64,000 nt of DNA from Yuukianura sp. NJ FZ-2021 (GCA_046563655.1 CM102286.1:3038001-3102000), one strand, 5' to 3'. Shown: positions 4,201-43,448, counted from the stretch's first letter. Numbers and translations are program-made. The notes: generated from the letters alone by a model not told the origin.

Positions 4201-7200
4201 ATTTAAATTGCATCGAAATGGAATTTTTTGTAGGAGTTCAACCGACATTGGTATACCGGTTTCTGGAGCAGACGATGAGCAGAAGTTGTACAGTTTCAAT
4301 CAAATGCATTGCCACTGGAAATCCAACTCCCACAATCAAATGGCTTATGGATGGTTTCAAACCACCAACTTCTGAGCGGCAAGTTCAAAATTTGCAAGCT
4401 TAACAAAAATGCTTTACGGAAGGCTGACTCCCTATCTTTCTAGATTCATGATCGGTCAATATGTCACTTTGAATGGAGATGTCATTTCACACTTCAATGT
4501 CAGTTCATGCTCCAGTGAAGACTCCGCAGAGATTTCATGTACTGCCAAAAATGATCTGGGAACAGCCAGTCACAAAGCTCGACTCAACATTTTCGGTAAC
4601 AATTTTTGAATCCACAAAAATATAACAAGCCTTTCACAAAAAATCACTTTTTTTTTACATTGAAGTATGAAAATATTCAACTTTGTTGAACATAAAATTT
4701 TAACTAACTTTGTTTTTGATTAAGGACCCCCATTTGTCCGAGACTTTGGTCGAGTGGATCCTGCCGTAAGTGGGAAAGACTTTTTGGTTAAGTGTCCAGT
4801 GGGAGGCTACCCAATTGACCACATCAACTGGTTCAGAGGTGAGTAATTTCAGTTTTTTGAAATGACTGCAACAAAACGTGACACGCTTGAGCTGCCGCTC
4901 CATCTAAACTCACTGGGGAGCCGAAATGTACGTTTTCGGGTTGACTTTCAGAACAGAAGCAACTTCCACTAACGAGCAGACAGTCAACCTCCCTTGACGG
5001 AACGCTCACAATCAAGAATGTCCAAAAGGCTGACAGGGGCAACTACACTTGCACAGCCAAGTACAAAGACCTCAGTCACTCCAACACTCTACAAATCAAT
5101 GTAGTTGGTAAGCAACTTTCCCTAGAGAAGCCTACAATCTCAGTCTAAAGTTTCAAGAAGAAGATTTTCAGGGAAAAAAAACGCTGATTTTTTATTTTTT
5201 TAGACTAATCCAGGTACTAACATTTTTTTAAACTTGTAATGATTCGTATCCACACGAGGTCAAAATTATATAGCGAAGGTTAAATTTTTTGCACAAGCCT
5301 TCCGGGCCCTACTTATAAAAGCTTTTTTTTTCGTTTTTTATTTGATTTTTGGGTTTTAGCTCCACCGAAACTGAATTACTTCCGTCCAGAAACTGTAGTA
5401 GAGGAGGGAGAGCGCGTTGTGAAGTACTGTGAAGCCGGAGGTGACACTCCGATAGACCTTGAGTGGCTCCAGAACGGAGTGACCCTTGACCCACAAGACA
5501 CAGCCAGTCACCCAGACATCCTCATCCAACACATAGGGGTTGACATAGCTCTTGTCCTTATCATAACACAAGTCACTCCACATTTGTCACAGACCAATTT
5601 CACGTGCGTCGCAAGGAACGAGGGTAAGAGCGCCAAAAAGTCAATGGGAGAGCAAACACATCAAAAAAATACTTGACACTTTCACCACAACTTTTACTCA
5701 ACTTCTCACTTTTTCCTTTCATAAAATCCTGTACAGTTGGCGAAGACCGACTCACCACAAAACTCATTGTCCAAGGTACTCAAAAAACTCACAAACTCAC
5801 AAAAACTACTTTAGGTTAACAAATAAAAGTAGTTAAAGTTCCAACACAGATTGGGAATTGGTACAACAGTACGGTGAGCGGGTGAGCTGTATTGAAATTT
5901 CGCGCTTAGTAGCTCGGTGGAACTGCAGTAGCGCTTATGAGCAATTGAGCATTGTCGTAGGTTCGAATCACCCTGTACCCAGAATTTTTTTTGACGTTTT
6001 GGGTTAAAATTACTGTTGTTTTAGCCTACAAAATGTTGTTGTAATATCCGAATGTCATTTTTAAAAAGTTTTGTTTAAAAACATTTTGTGGTCCCCTTAA
6101 GTGAGTCCAGTCGTGACAAAGTTCCAATTCCCAGAAGCCTTTGAGGGAATGCGTGTCTCCGTCCACTGTGCCGTTAGCAACTATGCTCAAGACGTGACTT
6201 TTGGCTGGCTCAAAGATGGGCAAGGGATTTTCGGAGGTGGTCAAGGGACACGGATCCTTCAACTGGACCCCTTCTCGTCCATTCTCTCAATTGAGAACGT
6301 GTCACTGGTGAACGCCGGTAACTACAGCTGTATAGTGTCCAATCCACATGGGAACTCATCTCATACAGCTGAACTCACTGTTTTTGGTAAAATTTTTGAG
6401 AAAATGAAAAAAAAAACGACAAAAAGTTGAAAGTTCACTCTTCTGCACAAGCACCAAAACCAGCACAGTTCCCCCGATGGTACTTATTTCAAAGTGCGGA
6501 ATAATTAATGCCACGGCCCTTCACTCCAGAATCTTCTTCCTCCACCGAAAGATACTTTCTCCCCTTCACAAAATAAGGCTTTTCTTTTCATTAGCATGAG
6601 TGCCTTCGCTTCTTCTTCTAACTTTAGCCTCTTCCTATGTCCCAGTACTAGGCATGGTCTAATTTCCATGAGAGGATTTAACGACAGACCACTTTTATGG
6701 AAGGAAAGTTCCTCGGAACGATGAAGATGCCAAGTCTGAAGGGTCCCTAGATCCTCCTAACAATTACCACGACACTACCCTTCATTTTTCTACAAGACAA
6801 GGAAATAGGCAACACGGCTACTTAACTCAGTCGAGCGTCCTGTTTCAAATCAGAGTTCATGAGCTTTTGTTAGGCAAATTTCAAAAAACAAGAGAGAAAA
6901 AGAGAAAGTTTCGAAACGCGGAATTTCTCTCGCTAAACCCAAATTTTGATTCCCTTCTCAATAGCGACTTTTTTTTTGCTGAATTAGAGCTGAATTTCAA
7001 ACTGAATTCCATTTTGGATTCGCGTAGCAATAATTTTTAATTTTCAAAAATTTTCATAATTTAACTTAATGTTTCCAGCCTAATTGACTGTAGTTAATTT
7101 CCTAATTTCCTAAGTTAATTTCCTTGATTCAAGAAATGTGTATACAATGAAAATAGGTCCAAGACATTTCTAAAATATGGTTTTGTGTCTGTGTTTTCGG

Positions 7201-10200
7201 CTGAACTTTTGTGGAAATCGTCTTTGTCTCCGTTTTCCTCTGGTTTACGGAGTGAGAGTAGTTTATGTGCCCATTTCTGTTATAATAATTACTCCATCTA
7301 AGAGGCTGGAGTTGATTTAAAGGAGGCTTAAGTTCTAATAACATTAAATTCCTCCATGTCAAATGGCTTCCACTTATTCCTAAATTATTACCATTCCAAT
7401 TCTCCCGCTCTTCTTGGACATACGATTCTGTTTCCTTAAGCTCCCAATTTCCATTTATTGTTAGTTAGTGTGCCCCTAGCTTGGAAATACTCGCTTTACG
7501 CTTAAGCACTCACTTGCAGCAGCACAATGGCAGAACGCACCGGCACGACATGCAGCACATCCTGGTTTGAAATTTCACCAATTTTTCAAATTTTTGATTT
7601 TGAAAATTTGCTAATTTTTGGCATGTACGGATTTCAGTACCGCCCAAGTGGACTGTAGAGCCGGTAGACATTGAGGGGGTCGAAGGGGAGCGTATTGTGA
7701 GTCACTGTGAGGCAGATGCCTACCCTCCCGCAACGATAAGCTGGAAGAAAGCGGTAGCCGGTAAGTGAAAGTCTTCCTTAAGGACCACTTTTGTGGTTGA
7801 AAAAGAAAACAAATTTGAAACGGTTCCCGCCGGTTTACTTTTCCTCCCGCCCTTTACTCTCTCTTTAGTAGAAGTTTTCATTTAGAAAAGTGAAACTAAA
7901 GTAGGGGGCCCTTGGAGAGTCATTGGCTAAGGCCAAAGAAATGTTTTGAGCCCTAGATTCCCCCAGAGAACATATTTCTGTGGCTTTTCTGAGGAATAAA
8001 ACCAGCATTGAAAAAAAAACTCCGGAATTTGGAAAATGGTAAAAGTGTCTCCAAGTCTTTTATTTTTCCAGCCTCCCAGTAATTCCGAATCCAAAAATAA
8101 GAGATTAATGGTCTTCGCCATTACTTCTCTTCGAGAAGCCATTCCCTACGTTAAGTTGAAGCAGGAGCCTACCGAATCCTCTGAAAAAACGGATATTGCC
8201 TCCCAAACAGAACCACTTTCCAAGTTCATTAATGAAAATCTCTACTCCCACAATCAATCCATGTCTGTCCTCAAGATTTCATCCAAAGACAATCTCCAAG
8301 GACCAATCACACGCATAGGACTTCCATAAATTAACTTTCCAAGAGAAAGTTAGACAATGTAAACTTTAGGTTAGGTCTAACCGCTAAGTCTCTGAAATAC
8401 ACAAAATTCACATTAGGTTTATTGCACCAAAGAATCCAAAAGCTTTAGACGCGTAGTGAAAGCCTAACATTTTCAAACATTTTCTACAAGTTTTTTAGGC
8501 TGTCACATTTTTGAAAAAGTGAAAGTTTCAAATATTTGGTGCGCAAATTGGAAAACTACAGAGAAAATTGGATATCTCAAATTTCCATATTTTTAAAAAT
8601 GAAAAAGACTGACAAAACAGAAGCTTCTGAAACGTAGTGACACAGTATAGGCTTGGATGTTACAAAAAAAAAGTAAGCCCACAGGATATGCTTAGCATGG
8701 CGTTCTGAATTTTAAAAAGCAAAATTTTGAAAGGTAATACTAATAGAATGCCGGGGAAAGTAAAAAGCGATTTTGCCGGGTGACTAAGTTTTTGGAAAGA
8801 TGAGCTCCTTTTCATAGTGCTTTCTTGAATAAGACGAAAACTGGCGGCTTATTGTTCACTTTAGTGTGAATTCAGTTTCTAGGAAGGTTTAATCCGATTA
8901 GCCCTACAGGAAACTGTTCCTCTTGGATTTTAATCCTAATTGTATTTTGTTTTTTATTCTTATGCCGAGAGAGTAGGTCGAACTGGAGCCTACGTTGACA
9001 TTCCAAGGCACCAAGGCAAAGGGCCCCTACCCCTTGGCTCCACTGCTCTTACTTTCTCCAATGGAACACTCCTGATCCCCTCTGCCTCGGCACTTGGAGA
9101 AGGGAAAGTAGTGAAACTTGTCTGTGAAGCAGAAAATGGAATTGGGACTGGAATAAGTAAACTAATCCGTTTGCAAATCAATGGTAAATCGCTACTTTGT
9201 TCGTTTGACTTGTTTTGAAAAAAAAAACTTAATAATTCAGGAACAAGTTGAAAAATGAAATGATAAAGTTTTTAGCCAGTTTGTAATTTAAAGAAAAGTT
9301 TTTAAAATAGGTAAAGTATTTCATAGATGAAGTTATGGTCTGGTTTGTACTATTTCAGTAGGTTCGCAATGCAAATTTAAACATTAATTTAGATAAGTGG
9401 TGAAACTCGTCATTTTTTAAATCGTTGTTGACAGCGCCAGTGAAAATGCAACAAATAGCAAAAAATTTGACCCTGAGAAGTGGAAGTTCAGGAACAATTC
9501 GCTGCGTCGTCAGTGGAGATTTGCCGATTCATCTCCATTGGTTTCATGGACAAGATGAAGTCATTCCAATAATCAATCACAGGTCATCTACAACATTCTA
9601 ACAACTTTTTTTAACTTTAAAGTTATTTTGAACTTAGGAGGTAATAAATTCGTATTTTTTGGTGCATGCATGTAGGTACCAAATCAAAAGTGTGAATACT
9701 ACTAGCGGTGTATCGTCAGAACTAACATTAAGCCATGTCCGGCGAGAAGACGCGTTACGTCCGTTCCTCTGTACTGCCAAAAACTTGTGTTCTTCTGTTT
9801 GCCGTATTGAGCAACAGGAAATGTGGATCTTCGTTTTGGGTACAAAAATTAAAAAAAAAATTAGCACAATTAACTTTTTGTAATTTCAAATTGCAATATT
9901 TTGTTTTTCAGATCCACCAGAAACTCCATTCAACCTTAGTGTTTTGCACAAAGATAGCAGATTTGTAGAGTTAGGGTGGAAACTGAGGCGTCAACATTCA
10001 GATGATGCTTTCACTCGTGTTTCTATCAAGTACAAAATGCAAGGAGGTTTGATCCGTCTTCAGAATTGACTTTACTATAAAGTCAAACTCAAAGGCCCTA
10101 AATATTTCAACTTATGTATTTTTCAATTGTAGGACCTTGGAATACAATTAGCGTGTCCGGAGAGAGGAGGGAGGTCGATGACCTCGATTCCATGTCAGCC

Positions 10201-13200
10201 GTGGTCAATGACCTCAAGCCAGCGACAACGTACCATTTCACTGTAATCGCCACCAATGTTATTGGTAGCTCTGAAAGCAAGGTAAAAATTTCATTTTCAA
10301 AAATTTGCTTCATTTGAGATTTAAAATGAAACAATTAATTTCAAAATTACATTTTCATTTTTCGTACTTAGGATGTGACTGTAGCAACAAACGAGGAGCC
10401 ACCAGACCTGCCACTTCGAAACATCATAGCCTCTGCTACTAGCTCCACCCAGGTCAAAGTTCAATGGGACGAGCTACCGTGGAGTAATGGAGAAACACAT
10501 GGGTATAACATAGGCATTCGAAAAATGGCGGATGGCGGACCATTTAAGTTTTCGGTTGCCGAGGGAACTGCAACTCAGATTTTACTTCACAACCTCCATC
10601 CATTTACACGTTATGAAGTTGTGGTGGGAGCCTACAATGGTATGGGTCAAGGGCCCTTGTCCAAACCAATTCAAGTAGTGACACTTGAAACAGTGCCTCC
10701 ACCTCCCAAGGGCCTTAGTTGTTATACACTAACTTCTCAGAAGCTGCAAATAAGCTGGAGCAGTATGGCTGCCGAGGAGAGTCGAGGGGTACTCAAAGGG
10801 TACCGAATATTTGTTCAAAGGGCCCATGTTGACTTGCTGTGTAAGAATACAGAAAATTACTGCAATTAAACTTTTTCAAAGCTCAAATGTTAAAAGTCTT
10901 AATATTTATAATATTTTAATACTTATTATGAAAGTAAACTTTTTTATGTTCCAGTACGTGATGACTTGATTGTGATAAATACGACAGCGGCTGAAACCTC
11001 AACTGTTGTAGACAACTTGTCCAAATACACAATGTACGAAATTCAGATTCTGTCACATACTAATAAAGGTAATGTAGTTAACTTTTTTCGTAGTCTGCGT
11101 ATATAAGATTTCAACAATTGGAAGTATGAGCTGTGGCTGACTTGTATTTTGTCTGGCAGGTGACGGAGACCTGAGTGCTTCTGTATATTGCCAAACAGAA
11201 GAAGATGTACCGGGAGCTCCAGAACAGATAAAACTTATCAGGGTTGACGCAGGGAAGGCCATTCTAGTATGGACTCCTCCAGCTATCAATGAAATCAATG
11301 GAGAAATTAGCCACTACACGGTCTACCTTCAGAGTGAACCAGGACGCACAGTACCGCCAAATATAACCTTCATGGAGGTATCTGTACCGACAAAACTACT
11401 TGTACCTCAAATGTAGAGCTCAACAAATGTTGCAATTTTCGACAGGTTCAACCGTCTCGTTTTCAAGCATTCCTGGCGCATGTGTCGAGCTCAACCAAAA
11501 TGGGTGAAGGAAGTAATGCAACTTTAAGCGTTCATCCGGAAAGTATGTGAAATCACAAAAAAATTTAAAAAAAACTTTGTATAAATTCAATTTGCACTGC
11601 ATACACTTTGGTTAACATTGTACAAGGTATGGGCGGCGGAATGATTTCGTTTGGAAAAGTAATTAACGTTCAAGTTAAGGCAAATTTAACACTCAACTGT
11701 ATCACTGCTGTTGGAAAACCACTCCGAACATGGTTCTTCCAGTCCAAAATCATCCAAGAAGCAGAGCGGTAAAATTTACTTTACCTAATCTACTTTAAAA
11801 AAAATTCAATTTTCTAAGATTTTAATTTCTGGCTCAGGAAATACATACAGCCCCAAGGATCAATGTTGCATATCAAACACATTCAAGAGGAAGATGGCGG
11901 GAACTACTCCTGCTTTCAACCTGGATACACTTGGGAAGGCGTGCAATTCAAACCGGAACGTATTTCGTACAGACTCATCGTTATGGGTAACGCTAATGTT
12001 AAAAGTTATGTTGCAGTAATACAACTATAGTTGTATACTACGGTAATATAAATTATAGTATATATAGTGTGATATTACATTCAATTCACGTGTTATCTAG
12101 CTCCTCCTCCTCCGCCAAAATTGCGGGAACATGAACTTACATTCAGTACCGTTTCACTGCGTTGGAGTACGAAAGAGGGCGGGCGCGGTACTGCCGTTGA
12201 AGGATACCTACTTCATATCAAAGTGTTGGATGAGTGGCTAGAAAGGAAATTTCCGCGCCGACTCAGTGCTCACGTCCTGCGTGACCTCAGCTGTGGAACC
12301 ACTTACCCGGTAACATTTAAAAATTTAACGCGTCTAATTTAAAAACGTGTTAGACAATTCTAACGCCTGTGTCATTACTAGATATATTTGACTGCCTACA
12401 ACAAAGCTGGTGTGAGTCGTCCAAGTCAATTGCTCAATATTACGACTAAGGGAGGTCGCCCAACGCTGACGGTGTCACCTGAATCATTAGTTGAAATCAA
12501 TAATACCTGGATTCGGTTGAACATGCGTCAAGCGTTCAATGATGGTGGTTGTCCAATAACGGCTTACAGGGTCTTCTTCCGTAAAAATTTAAATGAACTG
12601 CACTGGCAGAGCGGTAAATTTCACAGTTTTGGTTACGACTACGTAAAGTCATTTCATTTTGAAACTAAACTTAATTTGTTGCACTTTCTTTACCGCAGTG
12701 GAAGAAAATTTATCCAACGGAAGAAAAGTGGTGAATATAACCGGGCTACAAGAAAGTACAAACTATTTAATCAAGATTTTAGTAGAAAATGAAGCTGGTA
12801 AAACCGAAGTTACTTTTCCGGTAAAAACTATTGGTGAGTTGTCAATGTATAATTCTCAAACAAAGATTTAACTATAACTAACTTAAGTTTATTCAATATA
12901 AACTTTCTTTATAGGAATTACGGCAGAGCAGTCGAATAACGTTATCACATCCGTCTCGGAATCGTTGTATTTGAACTTCAAACTTTTCGGACCAATTCTC
13001 CTTTTTTGTATCATATTGATCGTATTCATTTCAGCAATTTTTTTAGTTTGTCGGCAACGTACGTACAATACTGATATCTAATCACAAATTACAAAACTAT
13101 GAAATATTTATAATTAAATTACAATTTATTTCAGGGACTTTCGGAGGTCAGGGTGAAGAAACTACAGGGGATGCTTTTACTTACTTTAAACAGAATGTTC

Positions 13201-14225
13201 AAAATTCTCAAGCACAACAGAATCAAGTGTACATGACGGTAAAGAAATCCACGCCGTCAAAAACTACTCCAAACAACTTCGATCTCGTACCGCGTAAACA
13301 GCCTAATTAAATTGAAATTATACTAACAAATCTATCAAATTTCCTCTAAAAACTGTTTTACTTTGTAGATTCTCCAGAGAATGTCCGTCCATACGCCACA
13401 TTTGAGTTAAAAAGCTCCGGTTCCGGTCGTAGACCACATCGACGCCGCGGTGGTGGCGGTCGACCTGTACCCCCAGAAGAGCCAAATCCGTTTTATATTT
13501 CGAAGGTGACCTAATAAAAGACAACGGTTAATACAGGTATGTATAAGAAAATATTTTGTGATACTTCATTACCTCCGTTTTCTAGGATGCCCACGTTTGC
13601 AATTCCAAACCAGCGCCTCCACGGTTATTTGATAACGATGAAGATGCAAGTGAAGGAGATGCCGAAGAAGAAGACTACGAGAGCATTCCCTCAGAATCTG
13701 ACTCATTCAGAGGACCAAGTATGTTATCATATCATCATTACCGTAAATTTTCGCATATTACGTAACGTATTTTAGCGCTAAAGGTATTCTTTGTGCAGAA
13801 AGAAGCTTGGCATTTGAGCAGCTCCATAATGGAGGCGGAAGATACGCTAACCGTTACGAACCTGCACTCAATCACAAAAGATGTAACAAAACATTAATAA
13901 AATTCAATGTTATACGTTAGGAGTAACTGTTAATTTAGTTTTCCCTGCATACATTTAATAGATGTCCAAGAGACAGAGATGTACCTAGACGATCCCAAAT
14001 GTCGCGCACCGAAAAACACAAGGTGAGTTCAACCGCCAATCAAAACTCTTGTCATTCTTGTGCAATCACCAAGCGCAAACTTTCTTACGTTTCAGAGCCG
14101 GTGACTCGTTCCATACGTCCGAAAGATGTAGAAAAGGCAGGTCAAGAAACTGTGGTGCTCTGATGCTTTGTGATGAACCTCCGCCCCCTTTCGGTGACGA
14201 AGAGTTGTGCCAAATTAAAGTTTGA
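1205..14225 (+). CDS. Dscam: Dscam-family Ig/FNIII receptor (Dscam2-like), multi-exon, 5' end outside the window
   Basis: Spliced exons follow the Dscam order: Ig5 (QPTLVYRFLEQT..KCIATGNPTP..RFMIGQYVTLNGDVISHFNV, 4233-4595), Ig6 (CPVGGYPIDHINW, 4724-5107), two Ig7-type units (5360-5775, 6102-6386), Ig8 (VPPKWTVEP, 7638-9183), Ig9 (9435-9839), four FNIII, Ig10 (~11626-11986), two FNIII, TM exon 12915-13058 (FGPILLFCIILIVFISAIFLVC), cytoplasmic PYATF motif (~13390), stop TGA 14223-14225. Assignment of exon 1205-1303 and the last cytoplasmic exons is less certain. Confidence 0.92.
3004..3165. mobile_element. ~160-bp element bounded by 35-bp inverted repeats that resemble Helitron 3' ends
   Basis: 3004-3038 (aactagacggaacccgtgatgtttacacatcacga) is the reverse complement of 3131-3165 with one mismatch. 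Each arm holds a ~20-nt palindrome (cgtgatgtttaaacatcacg) about 8 nt inside a terminal CTAG followed by T. Confidence 0.6.
3357..4144. mobile_element. Non-autonomous hAT-like DNA transposon (MITE) in a Dscam intron
   Basis: 19-bp TIRs: cagtcttgtactgtcttcc versus reverse complement cagtgatgtactgtcttcc (2 mismatches). Perfect 8-bp target-site duplication ATTGCCAT at 3349-3356 and 4145-4152. No transposase ORF. Confidence 0.88.
3369..4066. repeat. Minisatellite inside the hAT MITE: ~40-bp units built from TCTTCC(G/A) subrepeats
   Basis: Repeated unit of the form tcttccgatcttccgtcttccgtcttccagagaattttttg. It produces the overlapping repetitive ORFs at 3147-4005. Confidence 0.95.
5902..5992 (+). 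other. tRNA-derived SINE-like or pseudo-tRNA element with Pol III boxes
   Basis: A-box-like TAGCTCGGTGG at 5910-5920, B-box GGTTCGAATCA at 5960-5970, T8 run at 5985-5992. No convincing acceptor or anticodon stem. Confidence 0.45.
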
Positions 14226-14728
14226 CAAAAGGACAACATTGTTAACTAAAAGTAATTAATACTCAAATTAAATCCAGAATTGAACTTATCCAAGATATCC
14301 GAGCTGATTTAATTAACTCAATCCAGGTACTCATAAAAAGTAATCAACTTTAGTTTCCCACGATTGAAAAATATATATATCGAAGATGCTTAATTAATTG
14401 TTAACAGTTGAAGGCATTTTGACCCTGCATCGGTTACACAGAATGGCGAAGTTTAACGAAATAGAAGCTTTAAGCTGAATGATAACTACTAGCACTCCAT
14501 AGGCTTCAATATCCACCATATTGTCACTAACTAGACGTTTTTTTTAGACTTTTCGTTACCTAAAGCCCGCGTCAACCCTTCAGACAGAGGGTGAAGATCA
14601 ACTAATGAGAGATGGATAGTCATCCCCCTTACTGAATGACAACTTGACGCGGACTGTAACTAAAACTAAGGGAATACTCTAAGTTCCAGGGTCCCTTAGG
14701 CCTAATTACTGTTAGTTTTAAAGTCTTT

Positions 14729-17700
14729 TCATTTGCAAGCATCACAGAACGTCTTTCCGGAGATGTGACGAAGAGGAGACTGTTTTCCATAATACGGTTT
14801 GAGAACGGAACAGACACCGTTCACCATTTTACTGCATTTGGAACAAGCGACCTTAATCTTCTTTTCGCACTTGATCAGATTCTGACAAGGCAAGTAACAA
14901 TGGTGATTTCCAGGACACTGCAAAAAACAGGTGAAATCGTAACGACATTTTATGTAAAAATTGAATTTACAAGAATCAAAATTACCTTATGTCCTCCATT
15001 ACAAACTCGGATGCATGGTTCCAAGCATTTGTATCCTTTATGTGACGGCTTTTTGCACTTTTGATTGCAAAAATGTCCACATGTAAACTTCTTCCCGCAT
15101 CCAAGCTTCTCGTTTACACCGTTTGTCTGGTGACCTTCAGCACCCCTCGGACCAGTACTTTGGAAGCTGAGAAGAGAACTAAGGCTAGAAGCCGCGGACA
15201 GAGTACGGCTTTGTGGCAGTGATTCAGTGAAAGTAGAGTTTGTTGCAGTCAGTTGCGAGTTTTGTATAATAATACTATTTCGTAATGTAGGAGTGCTTCT
15301 TCCTTGCGCTTGCTTCAAATCACAAACGCATTTGTTCATGGTTCCATTTCGCATGAAATCTAACTGTTGGTGTGAACGACTCATTCCGACGGAAGTAATT
15401 CGACCTCCGTGAAAAACACATTTCAATCTCAATAGTGGTCCAATGTTGTTGCCTTGCATTAGGGTATTGTTAATTTCTCTCCAGGTGGGAGATCGCGTAG
15501 CAAGGCCATGCATGTTCCCCACGATGTACAATCCATGCCTATAAAAAAGAAATTGAACTTTATATGACCTAGGTCGACTAAAACAATGACAACTAAAAAT
15601 AATTCTGTACCTTGCACGTGAAAGAGCAACACAAACACGATTGTTCGTACGCAGAAAACCAATATTTCTTTCATCATTGCTTCGGACTAGTGACAGCAGG
15701 ATTATGTCATTCTCCTCACCTGTTAGTGTACAAAAAAAATCGTTTAAAATACTTCTTAGTACTGAGGTTTAAAACAACCAAGTTCTGAAAAAAAAAGTCG
15801 CCACTTGCCTTGAAAACCATCTACGCAACAGACGCGAACGTCTTTGGAATATTTGGTGCGCTTCATTCTCTGTTGTCAAAAAAAAGAGTTTCAAAATTTC
15901 GAGTTCTATCTCATCTTTGAAAAGAAACTTCTACGACACGTCACTTGGACTTACGTTTTCAATTTCAAACTTTTGTCCCAAGTAAGTAGTAATAATCGTG
16001 ATCTTTTTCGGCTCGTTTCCTTGCTCAATCAAATACAAGCACAAATTCGTCAAAAATTGTGCTTCCATAAGGTTAACGTAGCTCATCGAATCTTTCTCCT
16101 ACAAACAGAAAGAAAAAAAATTAAACCCATGAAAATTGATCTAGCTAAACAATAATGTAGTGCGTATTCGATTATGTAATAGGCTACTTGTTGGTCCCGT
16201 TCGTTGTGATACACAAAGAAAAGGTTCCTCTCCATGCCCTTCACGTCTGGAAAATGATTCACGCTTGGATCATTGTACAATTCCGTGTAAATCGTGGGAC
16301 AGATGAGTCTTGCAATTTCCGGACGCATGCGCCTTTGGACATCCAGTTGACTCCATGTTTTAAGTCCTTGTGCCTTAGCCGTTTGAACAAATCGTTCCAT
16401 AATGGACACATCCAAATGATTTGCAACGGTCAATGCATGGTCGGCAGTAGATGGACGTAGTTGCTTGTGGTCACCAATTAAAATCAAGCGTTTAGAGTAA
16501 TCCGTAAGTCCAGCGACAACTGTCGATTCTATAATATGAGCTGCTTCTTCAACAATGACCAATGCCGGTTTCACCTTGTCAAGTACTCTTGTCTTTTGCT
16601 TGGTAAATCCACAGACTGTCCCTCCAATCACTCGAGCGGCACGCATGGCTTGGACGATGTTTGTAACATCCTTCAGTTCTTCGACTTCTTTTTCCAAAAG
16701 CTTCACCTTGTCTTCGACAACTTTCATCAGCAACGGTAGTGCAGCGGTGCGTTGAAGTTTTGCACATCCCAATTGCGCTTGAACCAAATTGTTGGATCCA
16801 ATCGCACCATTAATGGACTCAGTTGCTTCAAAAAGACAAGCTCTGAGTCTGGCTTCTTTTGTCTCTGCAGAATCCGGTGCTGGCAGTACTTTTTGAACAT
16901 TTTTCACCTCAGGGTCTCTTAGGTAATCTTGCGCTCGTTTCAAGATCTTAGACGTCTCCAGAATATCCAGTTGAAGTTGAGTCTCAATGGAAATCAATTT
17001 TTGAAGCAAAATGTAATTCCGACGTGCTCGTGCTAGTGATGTCTGTAACACAAACAACATGTAATGAAAATGATAGACCTCATCTTCATCTTCAATCTGT
17101 GATTTCCGTTAATAACAATTTCCTTAAAGTACTTACTTTAGCTTCAGTTTTGCGGGTATATGCGTGTTCCTTTTCCCGCATGCTGACCCTGGTCACAATT
17201 TCGGATTTTGACCGACCCCCAATGCGGAGAACAAGGCTATCTCCTCGGCGTTGACAACCAGTCATAAGCGTAGCGTAGTTGACAACTATGGGAGGTGGAG
17301 TTCAAAGAAACTATTAGTGAATTCTCAAAGCTAACTGAAGTTTTACGTTCAATTCGTGGCAAAAGTAGTGTGTCTTGATTATTGACAAATTATTTACAAA
17401 GCTGTAAGCGAAGAAAATTGGTTTTACCTTTCTCCATGAGATGATCAAGCGAGTGATTCGTATTCGAAACGATCAAAATGGGCCTACCAGCTAGCAAGGC
17501 AGGATTATGAAGAAAAAATGTGATTATTTTCATCGCAATAAACGTTTTTCCAGTCCCTGGAGGACCTAAATAACGAAAAATATAAAAAATTTTGTTTCTT
17601 GCTCCAATGTAAAGTCAAAAGTTAAGTGTGAAGCGTAAATGAATTACCCTGAATTAATGCCAATTCTTTGGTAATCGCGGAATGGTAAGCCTCGTATTGC

Positions 17701-20009
17701 CCCTTGGAAAGGCCGAGCTGTACTGAGGAAGGAAACCCATCGTATTGATATTCCCCGTTCGAACGTGGCATCAATTGCACAATTTGCGACGAGAAATCAA
17801 CCGAACGAAACTAAAAGATGGAATGAAAAGTTAGCTATAGTCATTGTTAAAACAAAATGACATGCAAGTTTTTACATCGGATTGAACTGATCCGAAAGGA
17901 ATAGTCGGATTCAAAATGTATTTTCCTAGAGGCAGTTTAGACAAATTCAGTGTTTGTAAACTGTCCAGTGCATATCGATAGGCTTCAAAGAAAGCGACGG
18001 ACTCCAAAACTGTGAATGTTGTGCTCTCTTGTACAGTCCAACTGGGACCATCCGGAAAGAACAATACTTTCAAAATTCCTTGTTTAGCGAATCGCTTATC
18101 GTCGTCTTCATTTGCCCGCATGACAGTAGCAACCTTCGCTCCACCGCTATGATACATCGTATTTGGAATGAATAGCAGCATGGAACCGTTGACCAGAAAT
18201 CTTGATTCTTCGCTTGTGCTACTCAAATCCCAGTTCCCTTGCCTCATTGGAATAGTAATCTGTTGAACATTTTTCAACTCCAGGCTTCCTCGACCAAGAT
18301 TCACCTTCACCCCTTCGAATATTCGGACAGTTGTTGGTTTATCCTTGCTCTGTCTGGTTTGAATCCACCGCAAATACTGTTTATATCCTTCCCTCAGCGG
18401 CTTCATAAAGTCTTCTCTCAAAAGACGGAACATCGTATCTATGTAGTGTTGCTGGCAGTTATAGGGTGTGTCGACTTGAATGGGACGAACGTATTGGGCG
18501 CCGCCTTCCAAATCGTCCCGTCGTGGATAAATCGTCATGACACCAATTTTCGGTATTTTTGTTGGCATCGGATTCTCCATGTGGGTTTCGTTTTGCTTGT
18601 TCAAAGACGATTCCCAGTTCAATTCCTCTCGACTGTAGAGGAGCATTGTAACTTGAGCATCAACGATCTAGGATCCAAATCAATAGATAAACAAATATTT
18701 TTTAAACATGAGTAAGTACTTCATAACTTCATTAATAAAAATTGTTTGAAATATTATCTTACGGAACTGTGTTCTCCGCCTTGGATTTTTGTGTTGAAAT
18801 ATTTGTTGGAAAGCTGTTTCAAACTTGGGGAGGTTTTTTTGTGAAGCAGCTCTTTGTAATATCTACAATAATTGAAAGAAAATTAACGCTGAATCATATT
18901 GACGCAAAAGCAGGAACAAACGTCATGCGACAAGCATTGCAACTTCTGAAGGTTGAGCATAATGCAGCATCAGATCTTTCACATGCAAACTATCACAAAT
19001 TGGTTCGCGTGCAAGTAAGCAATTGGAACTAATCAAAATATTGTCAAATAAATCGAATCGTTAGCTCACATTGCTGTATCACGAGTCATTGCTTCTGGAT
19101 GCACAAATTCAAGGACTTCAAAGTCATTGTGAACTGAATGTCCCACAACAATCTTCTCATGAAGAATAGATCTAACTTCCTCGATTACAACGTAATGGTC
19201 AGGAGCTGGAAATCAAAATCGCAAATCACGTGATTAACATTGATTGCTTTCCTTTTAGCATCCTCACTTATTTTGCTATTCTTACCGTTGACAAGATCCT
19301 CTTCCCGGACACCGCTTTTGTTTGTGCGATAATCAGTAACAGGAAGCCTCGGTTTCACAAATCGATCGTAGATACAAAAGCCATACCGATTGACAATAGA
19401 TACTCGGGCAAGAGCACTATCACATAATTCTCCGACTCCGACCATCTCACAATCGATGGCCACCACGTTTGTTTCTTGTTTTAGATCTTCTCCCAATTCA
19501 TGCCCATCGATTAATTTTCCATAATGGTCATATTTAAACGATTTGCTCTTGTCTTTTGGAACGGATCCATTTACCCTTGCCTGCTGTTGAATCTGCTTAG
19601 TAGTTCCCTGCGTAGTAAGGATGGCCATAGCGTCCATTCTATCTGCCAAACTAATCAAATCCAGCCCTTCTGCTTTAATTTCTGCGAAACGAGACCCCTC
19701 GATAATGATAGGCTTCAGTGGAATTAATGGAGCAGGTTTTTTTTCCGGCTTGACAATTGCAATTGGCCCATTCAGGTTTGCCTCCGGTGGCAATGCTGGC
19801 AGTTTTTTATTGAAAGACTCGACGCTGCTTTCAGTCTTCGGAATTTCTTTTCGAGCGTGTGGTACTGTGGTAGTCGTGTAGTGCCCTGATATATTGGTAG
19901 TCGCTTGTGCCAGCCAGGAGTTGACTGCTTCCGTTCGCTGGTGGGTAGTCGTTTGTGCCACCCAGGAGCTGACTGCTTCGGCTCGCTGCTTGGTACTCAT
20001 TTCACTCAT
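14729..20009 (-). CDS. Fusion protein: REX4/ISG20-family DEDDh exonuclease + ZNFX1-like UPF1-family SF1 helicase + short Cys/His (NF-X1-like) tail
   Basis: Exonuclease motifs VAIDCEMVGVG, IVVGHSVHNDF, TRDTA, PSLKQLS and HSSIVDAQVTMLLY lie in exons ..19286, 19206-19070, 18862-18763 and 18667-. The 18667 exon continues without a stop into ZNFX1-like HYIDTMFRLLREDFMKPLREG. Downstream motifs: IQGPPGTGKT, SNTNHSLD, IVEEAAH, LIGDHKQLRPS, QRRMRPEI, VDGFQGEENDIILLSLVRSN, NRVCVALSRAR, then CGHFC..C..H..C repeats; stop at 14729. Start codon uncertain (20009 or 20152). Confidence 0.88.
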
Positions 20010-22387
20010 TTTTGCCACCCGGGAACTGACTTGGTAGGCGTTGTATTGGTCGTCAAAGATTTTGGAAATGGAAGTACACAAATGCCGTTGTTCGTGGGAA
20101 TCTCGGAGGGAGTGGGGACGATAGGGGTCTTCTTTGAGGAGTTTTGACCCATGATCTGAAATTAATAACATCAAAGACAACGTCGAAAATGTCGAAGTCG
20201 AAATCAAAAGCACCGCGCAGATTTAAAACCCAATGCTTTTAATCGATAGTTTCGAATAAGCCAGTCCAGTAATCTAAGTATTTCTTACGGCAATTTATTT
20301 TTTATTTATAGGTATCGGTATCACGTTCTTTCCACTCCACCTCTCGATCCATGAGCGATGGACGATGACCCAACCAGAACTATCGTTTGCTAGCACAACT
20401 CACGCAAAATGACGTCGATCAACATCGATACTGTAACGACTGAAACTGATGTTGACCGATGGAAATTAATTCTGGAATCCGGAAGTGGCAGACGACGACC
20501 ACAATCACAATACCCAAACAAAACACATCAAAATTTAGAAATCACAACATTTGGTTGGAGTAAGGTTTAACGACAATTGTTGTAGCTGCATAAAGTAACT
20601 ACTCTGACGCTGCAAATTACAGCCTGCAATGGGTGGGTGGCTACACTAATGCTGCTGCGTATTTTACCGCTTTAGATTAACTTTTCTTTAAGTACGAGCA
20701 ACTACAAATGTTGTCAGTAATTGGAGTCGCCTACCCATTATTGCTGGATATTCACTTTTTCGACATTCCATTTACGGTTGGATATCCAGCGGAAGAAATG
20801 GACGAAATGGATGAATCCAAAGTGGCGGAGCTGTGCCCGAATGGTGTGAATAATTTGAAAACAAAAAGCGCAAAGAAATCAAAAACAAAATAAAAACAAC
20901 TGCAAATCGTGCTAAAGTACTTTCTAATAAACGTAACCAATCAAGCAAAAGCAGTGTAAATAGTAAATAGTTAAAGTAGTTCATAATATTTAATTTAAAT
21001 TTATGTTAAGTTCGCATTGAATTTGTAAACTCAGCAGACTTCAATCCATTGTCCAGTAAGACCCCATTTTTTCCACTGGATATCCTATCCAGTGGAAATG
21101 GCAATTATGTCACTGGGCGTTTATGCATCCAGCAACGCTGCGCCTATCCTAGCCACAAAAATGCCCGGAGTTGCACTGGCACTGTTACATTGTTACAATG
21201 GTTGTGGTTAATCCTTAAGTTCGTCCAAAATTCCTTGTTGCGCCCGCTCTTGGCATTTAAATTTCACTGCTATCTTGCGACCAGCATTAAAATTTCGAAA
21301 CGTCGTTTCGAAAGTTAAAAAGCAACAACTTTCGCAACTTCTAAATTTTTAATTAACTAAACAATTTAACTAATAAAAAATCTTTCGCATTTACCTTACC
21401 TTCTTTAGTGCTTAATTTAAAACCAAAATACGTCAACCTGAAGTTGAATCTGATGATCAAGAGTGGACTAGAAATCACTGACTGATTAATCGTAAGGATG
21501 AAAAAATGATTATCTAGCCGCAATTCACCTGAATTGCTGTATAAAAAAAAATGTACAATTGAATATTACAAAAGCACAATATCCTGTGCACTATACAATA
21601 GTAAAACTGAAACTGATGAGTGTTTTTTCTCCGAATACAAAGTGATGTCACGCTGTGTGATGTGTAACTGGTGTATGGACATTAGACTTTCACTATGCAA
21701 CTTCGAGGTCGTCCATGTGATGACTCACTGTTGCGATCCCAGCTAAAAACCAGTTCTTGTGGTTTTTACCAACTGAAAACGTTTTACATTGGCAGCAAAA
21801 CGTTTGAGACGTTTTCTTAAACTTTCCTTAACATATTCTCTTCCAGGCAGAAATTTTTCGTATTTTTTCGTCAGTTTGAGCATAATACGAATTAAACGTA
21901 TACATCAAATCTGTATTAACGCCATTCCCCTACAAGAGCAAGCGTACTAACATACGTAATATGTATGTACTGTATTTCGAGTCAGGATTTAAATTGTCGT
22001 TATAGGTAATCCCATCCTGGTTAAAACGAATAGAGGACACTGCGGTTGAACTTCCTAAGCTACCTATTATACAACCTCGAAGTATAACTATAACGTTAAC
22101 GAAGTAAGTAGACAGGATAACTGCCGAATCCAAACTCAATTTAAGACAATTTTAGTTCCTTGTCGAATACTGAAGCCGTATAATCTTGAACAAACTTGCG
22201 TCACAAACGATAACAAATGACCTCTCAATAACCCCGAGATTATCTGTTAAAAGTCAGACTTTAGTTTTTGTATGATACAAATGATGCTACGTATTTCGTC
22301 TAGGGAAACCAATTCTTAAGTCATCAACTGAATTCCAAGGCGTTCAGTATTTTTTCATAATTTGTGCAACGTAGACAAACTTTAAAA

Positions 22388-23791: not shown

Positions 23792-24832
23792 CTGTGTTAC
23801 AAATGAAGAGAAAAAATCACAAAAATCTTCATTAGTTCATCTAAAAGTTGGTGAACATTTAGTATTTACCGACAGATTTTAATTGCCGAAAAAAATTAAA
23901 CAGGACGTTTTCCAATTTTGCAAAAAGCCTGCACAAAAAAACGTCATAACAAGATTGTTACAAATTCGCAGTCACAGACAGGAAATACTACCTATTGAAT
24001 TAAGTATTTCAATGTGTTATGCATACTTTAATATATAAAGATGATGTATATAATGTATTTAAAACTAAATTACTTCTTCTGGTTTCTATCGGCTTATGGA
24101 ACTTTACAAATATTGTTTTAGTTATATTTGGATTAGCCCTCAATTAAAATAGAGATAACTAGGAAGCGGAACCGAATGTACAGCAGCGCAAGATTTATTA
24201 AGTTAAGGTGTTAACGTTTTGCTTATGTAAATGAGAAAATTGCATTTTGCATAAGCTTTTCTGCATTTTGAAAACTATGAAAACCGCCTATTCCATGTCA
24301 GAAATTATTTTGAAATTTTAATTACAATTGACTGACACTTTTAATTGCTGGGCATCGCCAAGGAAGGTGTTAGTGTTTTACTGTCGCGTGAAATCGATTT
24401 CGTATGTGTTGAAAACTCCTTGACCTTAACACGCGACTTGTGACTACTCACTTACATCTAGTCACGGAGCTCATTGACCTTGAGAAGTCAATCATTCCAT
24501 TGATACTCGGAAGATCAAGGTTATCGACAAGGCGAGAAGTTAAATGTGTTAATTACGTTTGGTAATAAAATAATTGTTTCCACGCTTCATTAAGACATAC
24601 GCTGTCCAATTCTTAAACCATTAAAAAGCAGAAAAACTGGAAATGACACAAAAGTAGAACAAGTAACAACTATTTACTGTAACATGTTAATAGATGTACA
24701 AAAATCCAGCACCACTTAATAAAATCCAGTGTCAAATTTTGTACAAATGTCAGTAGGCGTTTCGTTAATAGGCGAGTATAGATTTAAAAAAATCGTCTTT
24801 ACTTAACAATTTTAACTAAAAAGGTTTTCCAA

Positions 24833-26688
24833 ATGCCTACACCAACTTTTCTCCAATCTTTTGCCACTTGGTTTCTGATTTGTTTAAAATTCGCAATATT
24901 TTTCGTCATATTCTGGCCATTCGCAATTTACCGATTTGTAATTTCCCTCGTAGTTCCTCTTTTGTCCAAGGATATTACACACATTGTGTTTCCGTTTAGC
25001 AGTTTCTATTTCCCGGCAACATTCATTCCATATTCTCACGTGATCATTGAATTCAAACTACGCGGGAATCTTTCCGAGAACGCAAAACGCTCAATTTTGA
25101 ACAGATTCAAAGAAAAGTGCATTTTGGCCGAGAAAGGAGCCGGACGCCTTTTGTATCCCGAATTTCAGGAATTTCCTGTACTGTGTTGTGGCTACCCATT
25201 TTGGAAGCGGGACAAATCATTTCAACTGGAAAATCATGTCCGTCATGTTTATATTAAGGAAGTTGCTCAACTACAGACGCAAATCATGGCCATCCTGGAT
25301 ACTTCGTTTGCGCAGGACAGGAGTCCATGGGAATTGATTTTTGTTGAGGCCAAGGATTCTCCAAATTGTTTCTACATTTTTTTCAAATTTAGTCACATTT
25401 TGGGTGATGGGAGATCAATTTTTCATGCGTTTATGAAAGCGGCTGATGGAGACGCCAAAGTGATTGAATTTGGGTCCAACGAGACATCTTGGACGACTCA
25501 CGTCACTAGGATTTTGAATTTTGTGCCAACTTTGTTGCGCGTCTTGTATCTAATGACGGAGCTTAACTCTATTGGGCCTTGGGTGGCTCAAGGTCAAGTG
25601 GGTGTGACCTTGACGACAGTCACTGAACCTATATCGCTCATGCGCGTTAAGGAACAAAGCAGGAAATTTGGAGTTTGCGTGCCAGCGTTCATGTTGGCTA
25701 TGAATGTTGGAGCTATTCGGAGAAAAATGCTGGCCGATGGAGATCCAATTCCAAATAAGTTACAGACAAACATTGCACTCAACGTGCCACATCATTCGAA
25801 GTCGCTCACAAACGAATAGTAAGTCTTTTTAGTTCCTGACCTCCAAATTTCACAAAGTTGAAAATGCATTTTTATTTTTATTAGTATACAGAAGAGTCCC
25901 TAACTTCTGAAATTTGCAAAATACAAAACTAATGGCAATTGCACAACCGAGGGTTGGAAAGCTTTCTTAATCCAAGGTTCTATTGTCATTGCAAAATCTA
26001 AATGGGCGGATTTTGCAATGGCAATAGAATCAAAGACAGACTAATAATGGAATTTTCTAACCCCCGTTTGTGCAATTGCCATTTCATTTGTATTTTGCAC
26101 GTTTCATGAGTTACAGACTCTTCTGTATAATGTAATTTCATGTTATATTTTCGTTCAGCGCAACGTTTATTCTGGATCTGCCAGTTGATTCAGCGAAGTT
26201 GACCGATAGATTGGCCCGTCTAGAACAAGAAATCCAGAAAGAACGTATAATGCTTTCAAGCCGAACTTACTACATACTTGCGGGAGCGTTGAGCAGATTA
26301 CCCATGTGGTTCCATAGGCTGAAGCAACCATGTACGGCTACGAGCATATTTCCTGGTCCAACAAATACATTGTCCATTTGTAACCATCAAATTGAAGATG
26401 TATCGTTCGCCATCAACAGAATTTCATCAAATGATTACAGTAACACACATATAAACTCTTATTTAAAGTAATAATTATATTAATTTTAAACATTTTTTTG
26501 TATTAGCTATTGTTCTCAACGTGTTATCGTACAACGGACATATTCGATTTCGGAGTTTAGGGGACGCCAAAATTTTTGAATCCCAATCTCATGCTGACGA
26601 ATTTTCAAAATTTATTTTGGAAGAATTGGAAGAAGCTGAAAAAACTTTGGAGCCAAATTCTCAACTACCGCTTACAACAATTCTGTAA
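24833..26688 (+). CDS. Wax ester synthase/diacylglycerol O-acyltransferase (WS/DGAT)-like protein, three exons
   Basis: Exons 24833-25818, 26159-26439, 26507-26688. N-terminal hydrophobic anchor, RSPWELIFV, SHILGDG (HxxxDG active-site motif), C-terminal VLSYNGHIRF. Confidence 0.8.
25885..26129. mobile_element. Tc1/mariner-type foldback MITE in intron 1 of the acyltransferase
   Basis: ~75-bp imperfect TIRs starting tatacagaagagtc and ending gactcttctgtata (TA-flanked), plus a central hairpin ttctattgtcattgcaaaatc / gattttgcaatggcaatagaa. Confidence 0.8.
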
Positions 26689-27383: not shown

Positions 27384-28086
27384 TTAGCAATGTTGACCCG
27401 CCTCCGCGTCGCTCACGCATTCCAGATCAACTGTAATGGGTGATGGCTTCGGTGGAGGTTCAAGTACCTCCACCTCTTCTTCTTTAACTTCAGTTTCACT
27501 TTTCACGAGCTCCGATTTCAGCTCTGCAGAATTAATTGTTCGAAAGTTGGCATCAGTAAATAATTTGACCTCCTTCATTCTAAAACGAAAACGACAGTTG
27601 ATCACATGATACTTAGCCAACCAAGCAGTATGTAATATCAACCAGTATGTCAACTTTTAAATGTTAATTTAATATTTAATTTTGAATCACTTACTCAGCT
27701 TCATTGTCATTAAGAGATCGTTTAATCGTTTTCTTGGGCAAGAGAACTGCTTGTATGTTTGGCAAGACTCCTCCCTGTGCGATGGAAACTCCAGGAAACA
27801 GCTTGTTCAACTCTTCGTCCATGCGAATGGCCAGCTGGAGATGACGAGGAATGATACGCGTGTTCCTGCTGTCACGAGCATAGTTTCCAGCCAATTCCAG
27901 AAGTTCTGCAGTAAGGTACTCCATGACAGCAGCCAAGTACACTGGAGCTCCTGCCCCAATTTTTTCAGCGTAGTTGCCTATTCTGAGGAGATGGAAGATT
28001 CTGCCTACTGGAAACTGTAGTCCTGCTCTGCTTGACCGGCACTTCGCCTTCGACTTGACCTTTCCTGCTGTTGCTAGTCCCGACAT
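27384..28086 (-). CDS. H2A: Divergent histone H2A variant: 131 aa unspliced, or 195 aa with a spliced acidic C-terminal extension
   Basis: Histone fold is unmistakable ([53 protein letters not shown]). Donor GA|GTAAGT overlaps the first stop; intron 27694-27580 joins in frame to exon 27579-27384. No canonical histone 3' stem-loop seen. Confidence 0.9.
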
Positions 28087-28995
28087 GATGTGTGGCTGTA
28101 GTGGGTAAAACGGTCGAGATTGAAACCGTCCTTCCTCTTCTCTCGAAGTGGGTTCACCGAAAAGGCAGATAACCCAAATAGGCAGATAAGTGAGATAATT
28201 AGATAAGAAAGCGGAATTGCCAGATAATCCGATAACGTAAAAATATCAAAACCATTGTAAACGCCGTACGTAAGTAGAAGTAGCGAAATGTACCCGAAGG
28301 TTTGTAACGGAGTCATTCGATCATTTGAAGCACCAGGTCGAAGTTCCAGGTCACCAGAACAAAATTTGTTTGGCTCGATGAAATGAACAACTTTTGTATA
28401 GATTTTTTTTCGTTAATATTGGAATTAGCCTGACCTATGACACGGAAGTAGTGAACTTCCGGTCAAAGCGGAAACGAATTAATCACCCCCAAACCATGTC
28501 AAGGTAATCTGAGGAGACAAATTAAAAACAATTTCAGTGGGTCTGGAGTTATAGACGTGCGGAGCACGAGCGAGGCCATTTTATAACTTCTAGCGTCTAT
28601 ATGTCCGTAACCGCGAAGGCGAAGGTGACCTACGCAGAAGTTGTTCGTGTCAATGAGGTAAACAACTTCTGAAGAGTTATACCACAACTGGCGGATATCC
28701 GAATCTAAAATACAACTTAACTCCTGAAGAGGTTATTCCTCCGATTTTCGTCACAAATTTACTTGACCTTGACCTTTGACCCAGAAGTTGTCTAATTCCG
28801 GTCAAACCGGAAACCGATTAATAATACCTGGACCATGTGAAATTCATCTGCGAAGACAGATTTAAAATTGGTACAATGGTTCCAGAGTTTCGGTGACAAG
28901 CAGACGAATAGACGGACAGACTCGGGGAAAAGATAAAGTAGCTCATATTTTCGCTGCTTAATAATTTGCACGTTCCCGTCGAGTTGGTCGAATAG

Positions 28996-43105: not shown

Positions 43106-43448
43106 GTTTTTCATCACTACAACAAGTGACAAGGGATACAACATCGAATCCATTACCGATTCTTACACCGAAAAACAGAATTACATTTAACGTTAATTTA
43201 AAAAAACTAAATCGAAAACGAAATGAACAACACAGAAATGAAAACACATCGGATCTGATGAGCTGAACTGAACTGAATTAATAAACAAAAGAATCTTCTA
43301 CACCCGCCTTACCGAGGGTACGAATTCTCTAAACCGAGAGGTACGGAGACGTAGACGACATGCATTTCGTAGAGCAATAAAGTCATCTCGACGACCACAT
43401 ATCTGATTTAATTCTAAAAGTATAATTTATTATTACAATATAATTTGT

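Follow-up and report, generated by a model that had tools for sequence, protein, structure and literature searches.

Whether a REXO4/ISG20-type exonuclease and a ZNFX1-type RNA helicase can be made as one polypeptide, and what such a polypeptide would do, is the question raised by a stretch of 64,000 nucleotides (nt) from Yuukianura sp. NJ FZ-2021 (GCA_046563655.1 CM102286.1:3038001-3102000), the whole of which is referred to below as the window. The gene concerned lies on its minus strand, between positions 20009 and 14729. Helicases of the ZNFX1 type are conserved participants in antiviral defence and in inherited RNA silencing, and the recipient of the RNA that the ZNFX1 motor hands on is a matter of current study. 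In vertebrates, ZNFX1 and ISG20 are antiviral factors induced by interferon, and a fusion of the two suggests a functional link between their families. The evidence assembled here indicates that the locus is very probably a real fused gene and, as judged from its sequence, a member of a small conserved subfamily of fused ZNFX1-type helicases.

Gene structure and spliced contigs

A hand-built spliced model of 13 exons (20009-14729) gives a single frame of 4113 nt, with a terminal stop only, encoding 1370 amino acids (aa). Eleven of the 12 introns are of the GT-AG type and one, after exon 10, is GC-AG (donor GCAAGT). Along the chain a REXO4/ISG20-type DEDDh exonuclease is followed by the ZNFX1 N-domain, a Upf1-like superfamily 1 (SF1) helicase and a short NFX1-finger tail. 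The motifs of the exonuclease start at residue 186 (DCEM) and residue 267 (HND) and span 318-323 (HSS/IVD), with those of the helicase at 639 (GPPGTGKT), 899 (EEAA) and 1086 (FQG).

The two halves meet inside exon 4 (17876-18667). Intron 3 splits motif III of the exonuclease between S320 and I321, with HSS closing exon 3 at 18763 and IVD opening exon 4 at 18667. Exon 4 is one open frame, which begins IVDAQVTMLLY with the motif III Asp and the final exonuclease helix and continues, after a linker of ~20 residues, into the ZNFX1 N-domain (MTIYP...HYIDTMFRLLREDF...). Upstream, exon 1 (19286-20009) encodes a low-complexity N-terminus with a 14-residue repeat and then motif I, AIDCEMVG (D186/E188), exon 2 (19070-19205) carries motif II, GHSVHNDFEVL (D269), and exon 3 (18763-18862) closes with GGEHSS, which holds the motif III His.

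The helicase occupies the exons downstream. Exon 5 (17648-17810) encodes a segment preceding the core, with ...ELALIQG as its last residues, and exon 6 (17428-17565) holds the Walker A motif GPPGTGKT together with motif Ia. A further segment of helicase domain 1 (LRIGGRSKSE) is found in exon 7 (17137-17285), followed in exon 8 (16188-17042) by a long domain 1 insert, motif II (VIVEEAAH) and motif III (LILIGDHKQLRP). Helicase domain 2 begins in exon 9 (15955-16098); exon 10 (15809-15869) ends with VDGFQ(G), and exon 11 (15611-15719) supplies motifs V and VI (EENDIILLSLVRSN...NRVCVALSRAR). Exon 12 (14986-15538) completes the helicase and adds a low-complexity spacer of ~90 residues and, from ~15105, the first NFX1-type zinc finger; the Cys/His-rich C-terminus comes from exon 13 (14729-14917), which terminates in a TGA stop at 14731-14729.

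Contigs bearing on this model come from X1, X2 and X3, three runs of one sample in which X1 and X3 are DNA-like and the kind of X2 is merely guessed ('DNA?'), and from X5, which represents another organism in another study and is ~92% alike. At least nine of the 12 introns in the model are skipped by X2 contigs with borders exactly as predicted, within the stated ambiguity and among the joints listed. Exons 1 to 4 are connected in this way by the joints 19205/19286, 18862/19070 and 18667/18763, exons 6 and 7 by 17285/17428, exons 8 to 10 by 16097/16187 and 15869/15955, exons 10 and 11 by 15718->15808 (ambiguity 3), exons 11 and 12 by 15537/15611 and exons 12 and 13 by 14917/14986. Introns 4 and 7 are skipped in a variant form with a few replaced letters (17809->17898 and 17042->17140), and intron 5 is not among the joints listed. 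None of the intron-skipping joints occurs in X1 or X3. A probable 3' untranslated region extends over 14488-14728, where X2 record 8 spans 14488-14902 and X2 depth is absent at 14000-14467.

The initial annotation of the window had described an exonuclease with all catalytic residues and a full SF1 helicase, and every motif and coordinate it named was found again. Its statement that the last exonuclease motif lies in the exon starting at 18667 and runs with no stop or intron into the ZNFX1 region agrees with the single open frame of exon 4. It had also held the locus to be one gene, not two merged gene models, and had proposed looking for reads across the junction at 18862-17876. Besides the splitting of motif III by intron 3, this is borne out by X2 record 11 (698 nt), which at the predicted borders connects 76 nt of exon 1 with exons 2 and 3 in full and then with the first 386 nt of exon 4, as far as 18282 and thus beyond the HYIDTMFRLLREDF codons. 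A misassembly near 18600, which would have undone the proposal, is not seen. In X5 a single ungapped contig of 719 nt covers 17958-18676, with the exonuclease exons adjoining, and the arrangement is therefore no assembly accident of the window.

At the 5' end the window differs from the sample contigs. It contains 41 nt at 19989-20029 which are missing from the X1, X2 and X3 contigs (joint 19988->20030, with a position ambiguous by 7 nt); this segment sits inside a diverged 42-nt-type repeat and shifts the N-terminal frame. The ATG at 20009 is accordingly valid as a start for the window haplotype only. Without the 41 nt an upstream ATG at 20152 comes into frame (MGQNSSKK...), giving a protein of about 1404 aa, and 20010-20152, on the same strand and out of frame in the window, is a probable 5' coding extension. 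The closest relative found, a metagenome contig described below (L001), begins MGQDSSKY. We take the shared MGQxSSK start to match the N-myristoylation pattern, and both starts hint at a membrane-anchored protein. X5 carries 16 extra letters near 19989-20029 which, by gap-count arithmetic, would likewise restore the frame.

A tblastn search of the spliced model against the window returned matches to the gene itself only, with no second copy found there. Among the X1 and X3 contigs some are only 85-92% like the helicase exons (window 16494-17936), at a depth similar to that of the perfect-match contigs. Such contigs might stem from paralogues, strongly diverged haplotypes or a mixed sample; as contigs 85-90% alike occur at comparable depth, paralogues or divergent haplotypes would appear to exist.

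Two enzymes in one chain

The exonuclease half resembles ISG20 most closely among solved structures. The last 78 aa of exon 1 match human ISG20 (1wlj) with an expect value (E) of 8.7e-16, followed by ISG20L2 and plant SDN1; Arabidopsis Small RNA degrading nuclease 1 (5z9x) scores E 3.2e-11 against this piece and 2.6e-20 against the orthologous protein (P0015) of Bradysia coprophila, a sciarid fly kept in laboratories. Among sequences, residues 158-346 are 51% identical over 193 columns (E 2e-60) to the 'RNA exonuclease 4' of the springtail Orchesella dallaii (P0143, residues 210-398), a range which spans the entire Pfam RNase_T stretch of that protein (236-383). Identity amounts to 50-55% with ordinary arthropod REXO4 and 48-49% with the fused domains of sciarids. 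All five DEDDh residues (D, E, D, H, D) are present in the window protein and aligned to ISG20 and the sciarid proteins. Exon 1 alone matched no Pfam family, the domain being spread over four exons; in the Bradysia orthologue RNase_T reaches 66.7 bits, the cut-off being 24. The window protein shares its five catalytic residues with REXO4, ISG20 and ISG20L2 (RNase_T, PF00929), the last two of which are its best solved relatives. In contrast to these small stand-alone or tandem same-domain proteins, it carries the exonuclease as the N-terminal part of a helicase 1370 residues long. As to the tandem forms, four proteins of 733-804 aa (P0139, P0141, P0142 and P0183) contain four REXO4-like exonuclease domains per chain, and two tapeworm REXO4 proteins (P0138, P0140) contain two, a further uncommon arrangement of this domain.

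The helicase half belongs with ZNFX1. Exon 4 aligns with residues 395-623 of the solved ZNFX1 structure 9q9z (E 2.7e-14), and its match to the Pfam family ZNFX1 (PF25396) stands at E 0.0048 and 17.3 bits, under the cut-off of 27. Exon 8 also finds 9q9z as its best solved relative (E 2.6e-29). Both helicase families that the initial annotation had expected were matched, AAA_11 on exon 6 (E 8.4e-06) and exon 8 (E 3e-11) and AAA_12 on exon 9 (E 9.3e-07), and the window protein and P0015 both retain motifs I, II, III, V and VI. A helicase-only start at the internal Met of residue 363, where several fragment proteins begin, was considered and dropped, this Met being conserved family-wide (M-x-I-Y-P in solved ZNFX1).

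Canonical ZNFX1 (human 9q9z, Caenorhabditis elegans ZNFX-1 and Schizosaccharomyces pombe Hrr1) aligns with the window protein over the N-domain, the Upf1-like SF1 core and the first NFX1-type finger. It differs at both ends, in its first ~390 residues, in place of which the window protein has the exonuclease, and in its RZ finger and much longer zinc-finger region. The initial annotation had proposed both departures. That the nuclease replaces the usual N-terminus is upheld by the alignment to 9q9z, which begins only at residue 395, with the exonuclease before that. The shortening of the zinc-finger tail is equally apparent: the last 195 residues contain 18 Cys and 8 His, CGH motifs number 1 in the window protein vs 15 in P0015, and the first NFX1-type finger alone aligns to ZNFX1. 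Exon 12 matches 9q9z at 1314-1367, the end of the helicase, and at 1377-1418, the first NFX1-type finger, with a whole-query E of 8.7e-08; the finger match by itself is weak (E 4.7). No Pfam family was found on exons 12-13, even up to E 10, and no PDB match on exon 13.

The RZ-type finger (PF20173) gave no match on exons 12 and 13, and it is not among the Pfam families listed for P0015 or for the Pseudolycoriella hygida protein discussed below (P0133). In the same library it scores E 4e-23 in the ZNFX1 of Periplaneta (cockroach) and 8e-24 in that of Neodiprion (sawfly). In human ZNFX1 the RZ finger holds a ubiquitin-accepting catalytic Cys and confers E3 ligase activity, as reported in a 2025 preprint (10.1101/2025.09.05.674436). 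With this finger not found and the zinc-finger region much reduced, the E3 ligase output of human ZNFX1 is probably absent from the window protein.

A different N-terminal module is listed for two other ZNFX1-type helicases in precomputed Pfam annotation, P0033 (1356 aa) and P0098 (1386 aa), both with a cold-shock domain and the latter also with a CCCH finger. These forms show that N-terminal module swapping recurs in the family.

Relatives and origin of the fusion

Among the best 120 of 445 matches to exon 8 in a collection of longer proteins, one, the Bradysia protein P0015, lists RNase_T beside helicase families. Its Pfam domains are RNase_T (64-211), ZNFX1 (328-411), AAA_11 (493-852) and AAA_12 (862-1051), and residues 167-1333 of the spliced model align with its residues 47-1253 in one segment, at 35% identity and 631 bits. 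When the exonuclease part of P0015 was compared with long proteins (864-2750 aa), four matches were obtained from 703 candidates, two of them fused, namely P0015 itself and P0133 from Pseudolycoriella hygida, whose fusion is confirmed by Pfam. Like the window protein, the two sciarid proteins have the order RNase_T, ZNFX1, AAA_11/AAA_12, a linker between the halves that is alignable in length and sequence, and a place in the same helicase clade. They differ from it in being only ~35% identical, in possessing a long array of CGH fingers and in the lack of the MGQxSSK start. Residues 133-167 of P0133 contain C2H2 fingers upstream of the exonuclease, which may come from a merged neighbour gene in a model labelled 'partial'.

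Metagenome contigs were scanned with an alignment of exon-4 homologues, yielding 22 loci. An exonuclease lies upstream of the ZNFX1-like match in 2/22, or in 2/10 when only loci with 2 kb or more upstream are counted. One of the two, L001, is the closest relative found (48-63% identity per exon): its exons 1-5 are as in the window, introns 1-4 lie at identical positions, the GEHSS/IVDAQ split recurs and the fusion exon is continuous. The other, L006, encodes the exonuclease and a complete helicase in the same order. Exon frames of both contigs show the catalytic motifs (DCEM/LDCEM, HND/HYD, HSS-I.D). Altogether the fusion was traced in two annotated species, two metagenome contigs, the window and its relative X5.

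Several other searches gave no further example. Metagenome scanning with P0146 alone found no relative. Exon 4 matched 13 of 1106 candidates among longer proteins, with RNase_T listed in 0/13. The first 468 residues of P0015 gave 7906 HMMER matches at E <= 0.001, and 16 of the best 150, chosen as multi-stretch or long matches together with the kind of the top two, were scanned with Pfam; none of these 16 combined RNase_T with a helicase in a library whose cluster representatives are often fragments. The multi-stretch matches proved to be tandem exonuclease repeats. In the ESM Atlas, residues 1-1100 of P0015 returned no combination of RNase_T and helicase families in 10 cluster rows of 30 matches, which covered clusters of at least 50 members only.

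A single origin is supported by the helicase half. In a tree of 29 rows the window pairs up with L001 at a support of 100, L006 joins five sciarid-type sequences at 96, and all of these form one clade with a support of 99, starred, in the Shimodaira-Hasegawa-like approximate likelihood ratio test (SH-aLRT). Canonical ZNFX1 from cockroach, stick insect, aphid, sawfly, lacewing and moths falls outside this clade, which has long branches relative to other insect ZNFX1 and was recovered at 99 in an earlier tree of 41 rows; both trees put the window protein within the ZNFX1 of insects. Every member with known upstream sequence has the exonuclease (window, L001, L006, P0015 and P0133); the remaining members, P0014, P0016 and P0136, are fragments that begin downstream of it. 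Sister to the whole clade (SH-aLRT 92) is the ZNFX1-like locus L013 (Ga0194135_10005566, match 6229-7712), in which no exonuclease match was found in 6.2 kb upstream. The simplest reading would be a single fusion in the ancestor of the clade. The separate trees for each half that the initial annotation had called for gave divided results: the helicase half yields one fused clade, but the exonuclease half, for which 78 rows were used of 151 extracted, does not settle monophyly and is neither for nor against a single fusion origin. L001, L006 and L013 all derive from one metagenome project.

The proteins of the two flies are predicted ones known from sequence records, and no study of them was found. 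Both are named after the helicase. The Bradysia records XP_037032223.1 and XP_037032222.1 are entitled 'NFX1-type zinc finger-containing protein 1-like' isoforms X2 and X1, their differences being confined to near the C-terminus, and the Pseudolycoriella record KAJ6646662.1 is entitled 'Helicase required for RNAi-mediated heterochromatin assembly 1, partial'. Automatic names of this kind conceal the extra enzyme. A literature search for an architecture of ZNFX1-type helicase and exonuclease found no paper, within a coverage that leaves out most subscription journals. The initial annotation, which did not recognise the architecture as described, was therefore right as to the papers found but not as to public annotation, in which the fusion is already present for two sciarid flies; it is undescribed in the papers found, yet present in public protein records.

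Other polypeptides combine a nuclease with a helicase. Dna2 pairs a nuclease with a Upf1-like SF1B helicase, and WRN a DEDD exonuclease with a RecQ helicase. The Dna2 helicase is a detectable sequence relative of P0015 (E 6.7e-23). Staphylococcus aureus DinG is reported to have an N-terminal 3'-5' exonuclease and a 5'-3' helicase (PMC12345164). These three resemble the window protein in holding both activities in one polypeptide, and differ from it in serving DNA replication and repair, in using other nuclease folds or helicase superfamilies and in lacking the ZNFX1-REXO4 pairing. Since such chains and N-terminal swaps are known, the fusion is not a new category.

Possible functions and neighbouring sequence

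The sequence comparisons lean towards a subfamily in which the ZNFX1 N-terminus has been swapped for a REXO4/ISG20-type DEDDh exonuclease and the RZ part is missing, the product being a self-contained enzyme for the unwinding and degradation of RNA. Its two enzymes are likely both active, and a coupling of RNA unwinding with decay in defence or silencing may be put forward more tentatively. Human ZNFX1 is an RNA-stimulated ATPase for which translocation or unwinding is proposed, according to the preprint cited above (10.1101/2025.09.05.674436). The SF1 motor of the fused protein would bind one RNA strand and translocate along it, freeing single-stranded 3' ends that the attached exonuclease would digest in the 3'->5' direction. 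A motor moving 5'->3' and a nuclease moving 3'->5' on opposite strands of a duplex would proceed in the same spatial direction. The likeliest setting, still tentative, would be the elimination of aberrant RNA, such as that of viruses or transposons, by a nuclease output instead of ubiquitin ligation. With the ligase end gone and a complete exonuclease in front, a conserved lineage of this kind would offer a simple single-chain model of 'sense, unwind and degrade'.

A doubtful extension of this proposal is an effector swap in an ancient helicase of RNA surveillance, whereby the ZNFX1 motor would sense foreign or aberrant RNA and, where most animals would respond through the RZ/Z-RING ubiquitin ligase, the built-in nuclease of this insect clade would destroy that RNA itself, with membrane anchoring through MGQxSSK added in the branch of the window. 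Were the swap true, ZNFX1 and ISG20/REXO4-type exonucleases would be predicted to cooperate as separate proteins elsewhere; were the anchoring true, the enzyme would be placed at membrane-bound RNA replication sites.

A number of observations weigh against an unwind-and-degrade enzyme of this kind, or against parts of the case for it. REXO4 elsewhere is a housekeeping enzyme of ribosomal RNA processing, and a role in defence is not implied by the domain. The polarity assumed for the motor is borrowed from its relatives Upf1, IGHMBP2 and Sen1 (5'->3'). Motif II of P0133 reads HSIDKNLEVL as opposed to HS(V/I)HNDxxVL elsewhere, the catalytic Asp having become Asn, so nuclease activity would not be retained in every member. 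The linker of L006 holds an extra intron (donor GTAAGT), and the junction there is not inside one exon. The exonuclease tree does not show the fused domains to be one another's nearest kin: the window's domain joins springtail REXO4 (SH-aLRT 85), and a larger group taking in the sciarid domains reaches 87, neither value being starred. Within exon 4, X2 record 11 departs from the window sequence at 8/386 positions and may derive from another allele or a paralogue. As the kind of X2 is a guess, its spliced contigs represent either complementary DNA or an intron-less copy; a fused messenger RNA existed either way, and expression at the present day is presumed.

Among the rival explanations, one holds that the protein is simply the lineage's REXO4, engaged in 3' trimming of pre-ribosomal or other stable RNA, with a captured helicase as its built-in cofactor and no role in defence or silencing. 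The helicase would then strip structure or protein from the substrate, in the manner of the separate helicases that serve the exosome. This is unlikely, even if the exonuclease is about as near to ordinary arthropod REXO4 as to the sciarid fused domains and has springtail REXO4 beside it in the tree. The long branches of the fused clade fit fast evolution better than a core enzyme, one member (P0133) is without a catalytic Asp, and the helicase half belongs to the ZNFX1 family, the studied members of which are reported to act in antiviral sensing and small-RNA inheritance (10.1101/2025.09.05.674436; PMC9276528). A place in a small-RNA pathway, in which the exonuclease would trim the 3' ends of small RNAs or cleaved targets and the motor would hold or remodel the target in a germ-granule-like setting, finds some encouragement in the high rank of Arabidopsis SDN1 among solved relatives of the exonuclease and in the naming of the Pseudolycoriella protein after S. 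pombe Hrr1. DEDDh enzymes such as SDN1, ERI-1 and QIP trim 3' ends of small RNAs or target fragments in other organisms. ISG20 and ISG20L2 are, however, closer solved relatives than SDN1, and the described roles of ZNFX-1 and Hrr1 depend on RNA-dependent RNA polymerases, enzymes that flies are not known to possess. This explanation is thus rather improbable, in spite of the part that C. elegans ZNFX-1 is reported to play in small-RNA amplification and inheritance (PMC9276528).

The remaining two rivals concern the protein itself. If the exonuclease domain were a non-catalytic module for binding RNA ends, the protein would be a helicase or sensor only, a possibility that the Asn of P0133 brings to mind. 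It is very improbable for the subfamily, given that all five DEDDh residues are kept in two of the three aligned full-length fused proteins (the window and P0015) and that motif residues also appear in the exon frames of L001 and L006. Least credible is an artefact, whether a misassembly or neighbouring REXO4 and ZNFX1-like genes misread as one. Nothing was found in its favour, the sole irregularity being the 41-nt difference at 19989-20029, far from the junction. Against it stand a catalytic motif split by the junction intron with no stop ahead of the helicase, a spliced contig that spans exons 1-4, the ungapped X5 contig, and the same order in L001, L006, Bradysia and Pseudolycoriella. The reading somewhat favoured above, that of an unwind-and-degrade enzyme, is the one retained.

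Directly upstream of the gene, at 20552-21000, lies a very high-copy repeat, where summed contig depth rises from ~100-300 to 10,000-52,000 in X1 and 4,000-21,000 in X3, with a rise in X5 too, and many loose contig ends are found at 20741-20839. Exon-sized open reading frames (ORFs) at 10372-10869, 24788-25819, 27691-28245, 34597-36835, 39065-40078 and 55565-56401 encode animal domains unrelated to the fusion: fibronectin type III, WS/DGAT-like acyltransferase, histone H2A, RECK (frizzled-like, Kazal), GMC oxidoreductase and FkbM-type methyltransferase. On the minus strand at 40526-49406 there is a tandem zinc-finger gene array of four similar ORFs of 330-341 aa (40526-41536, 43449-44441, 45712-46710 and 48381-49406), each of which contains C2H2 zinc fingers.

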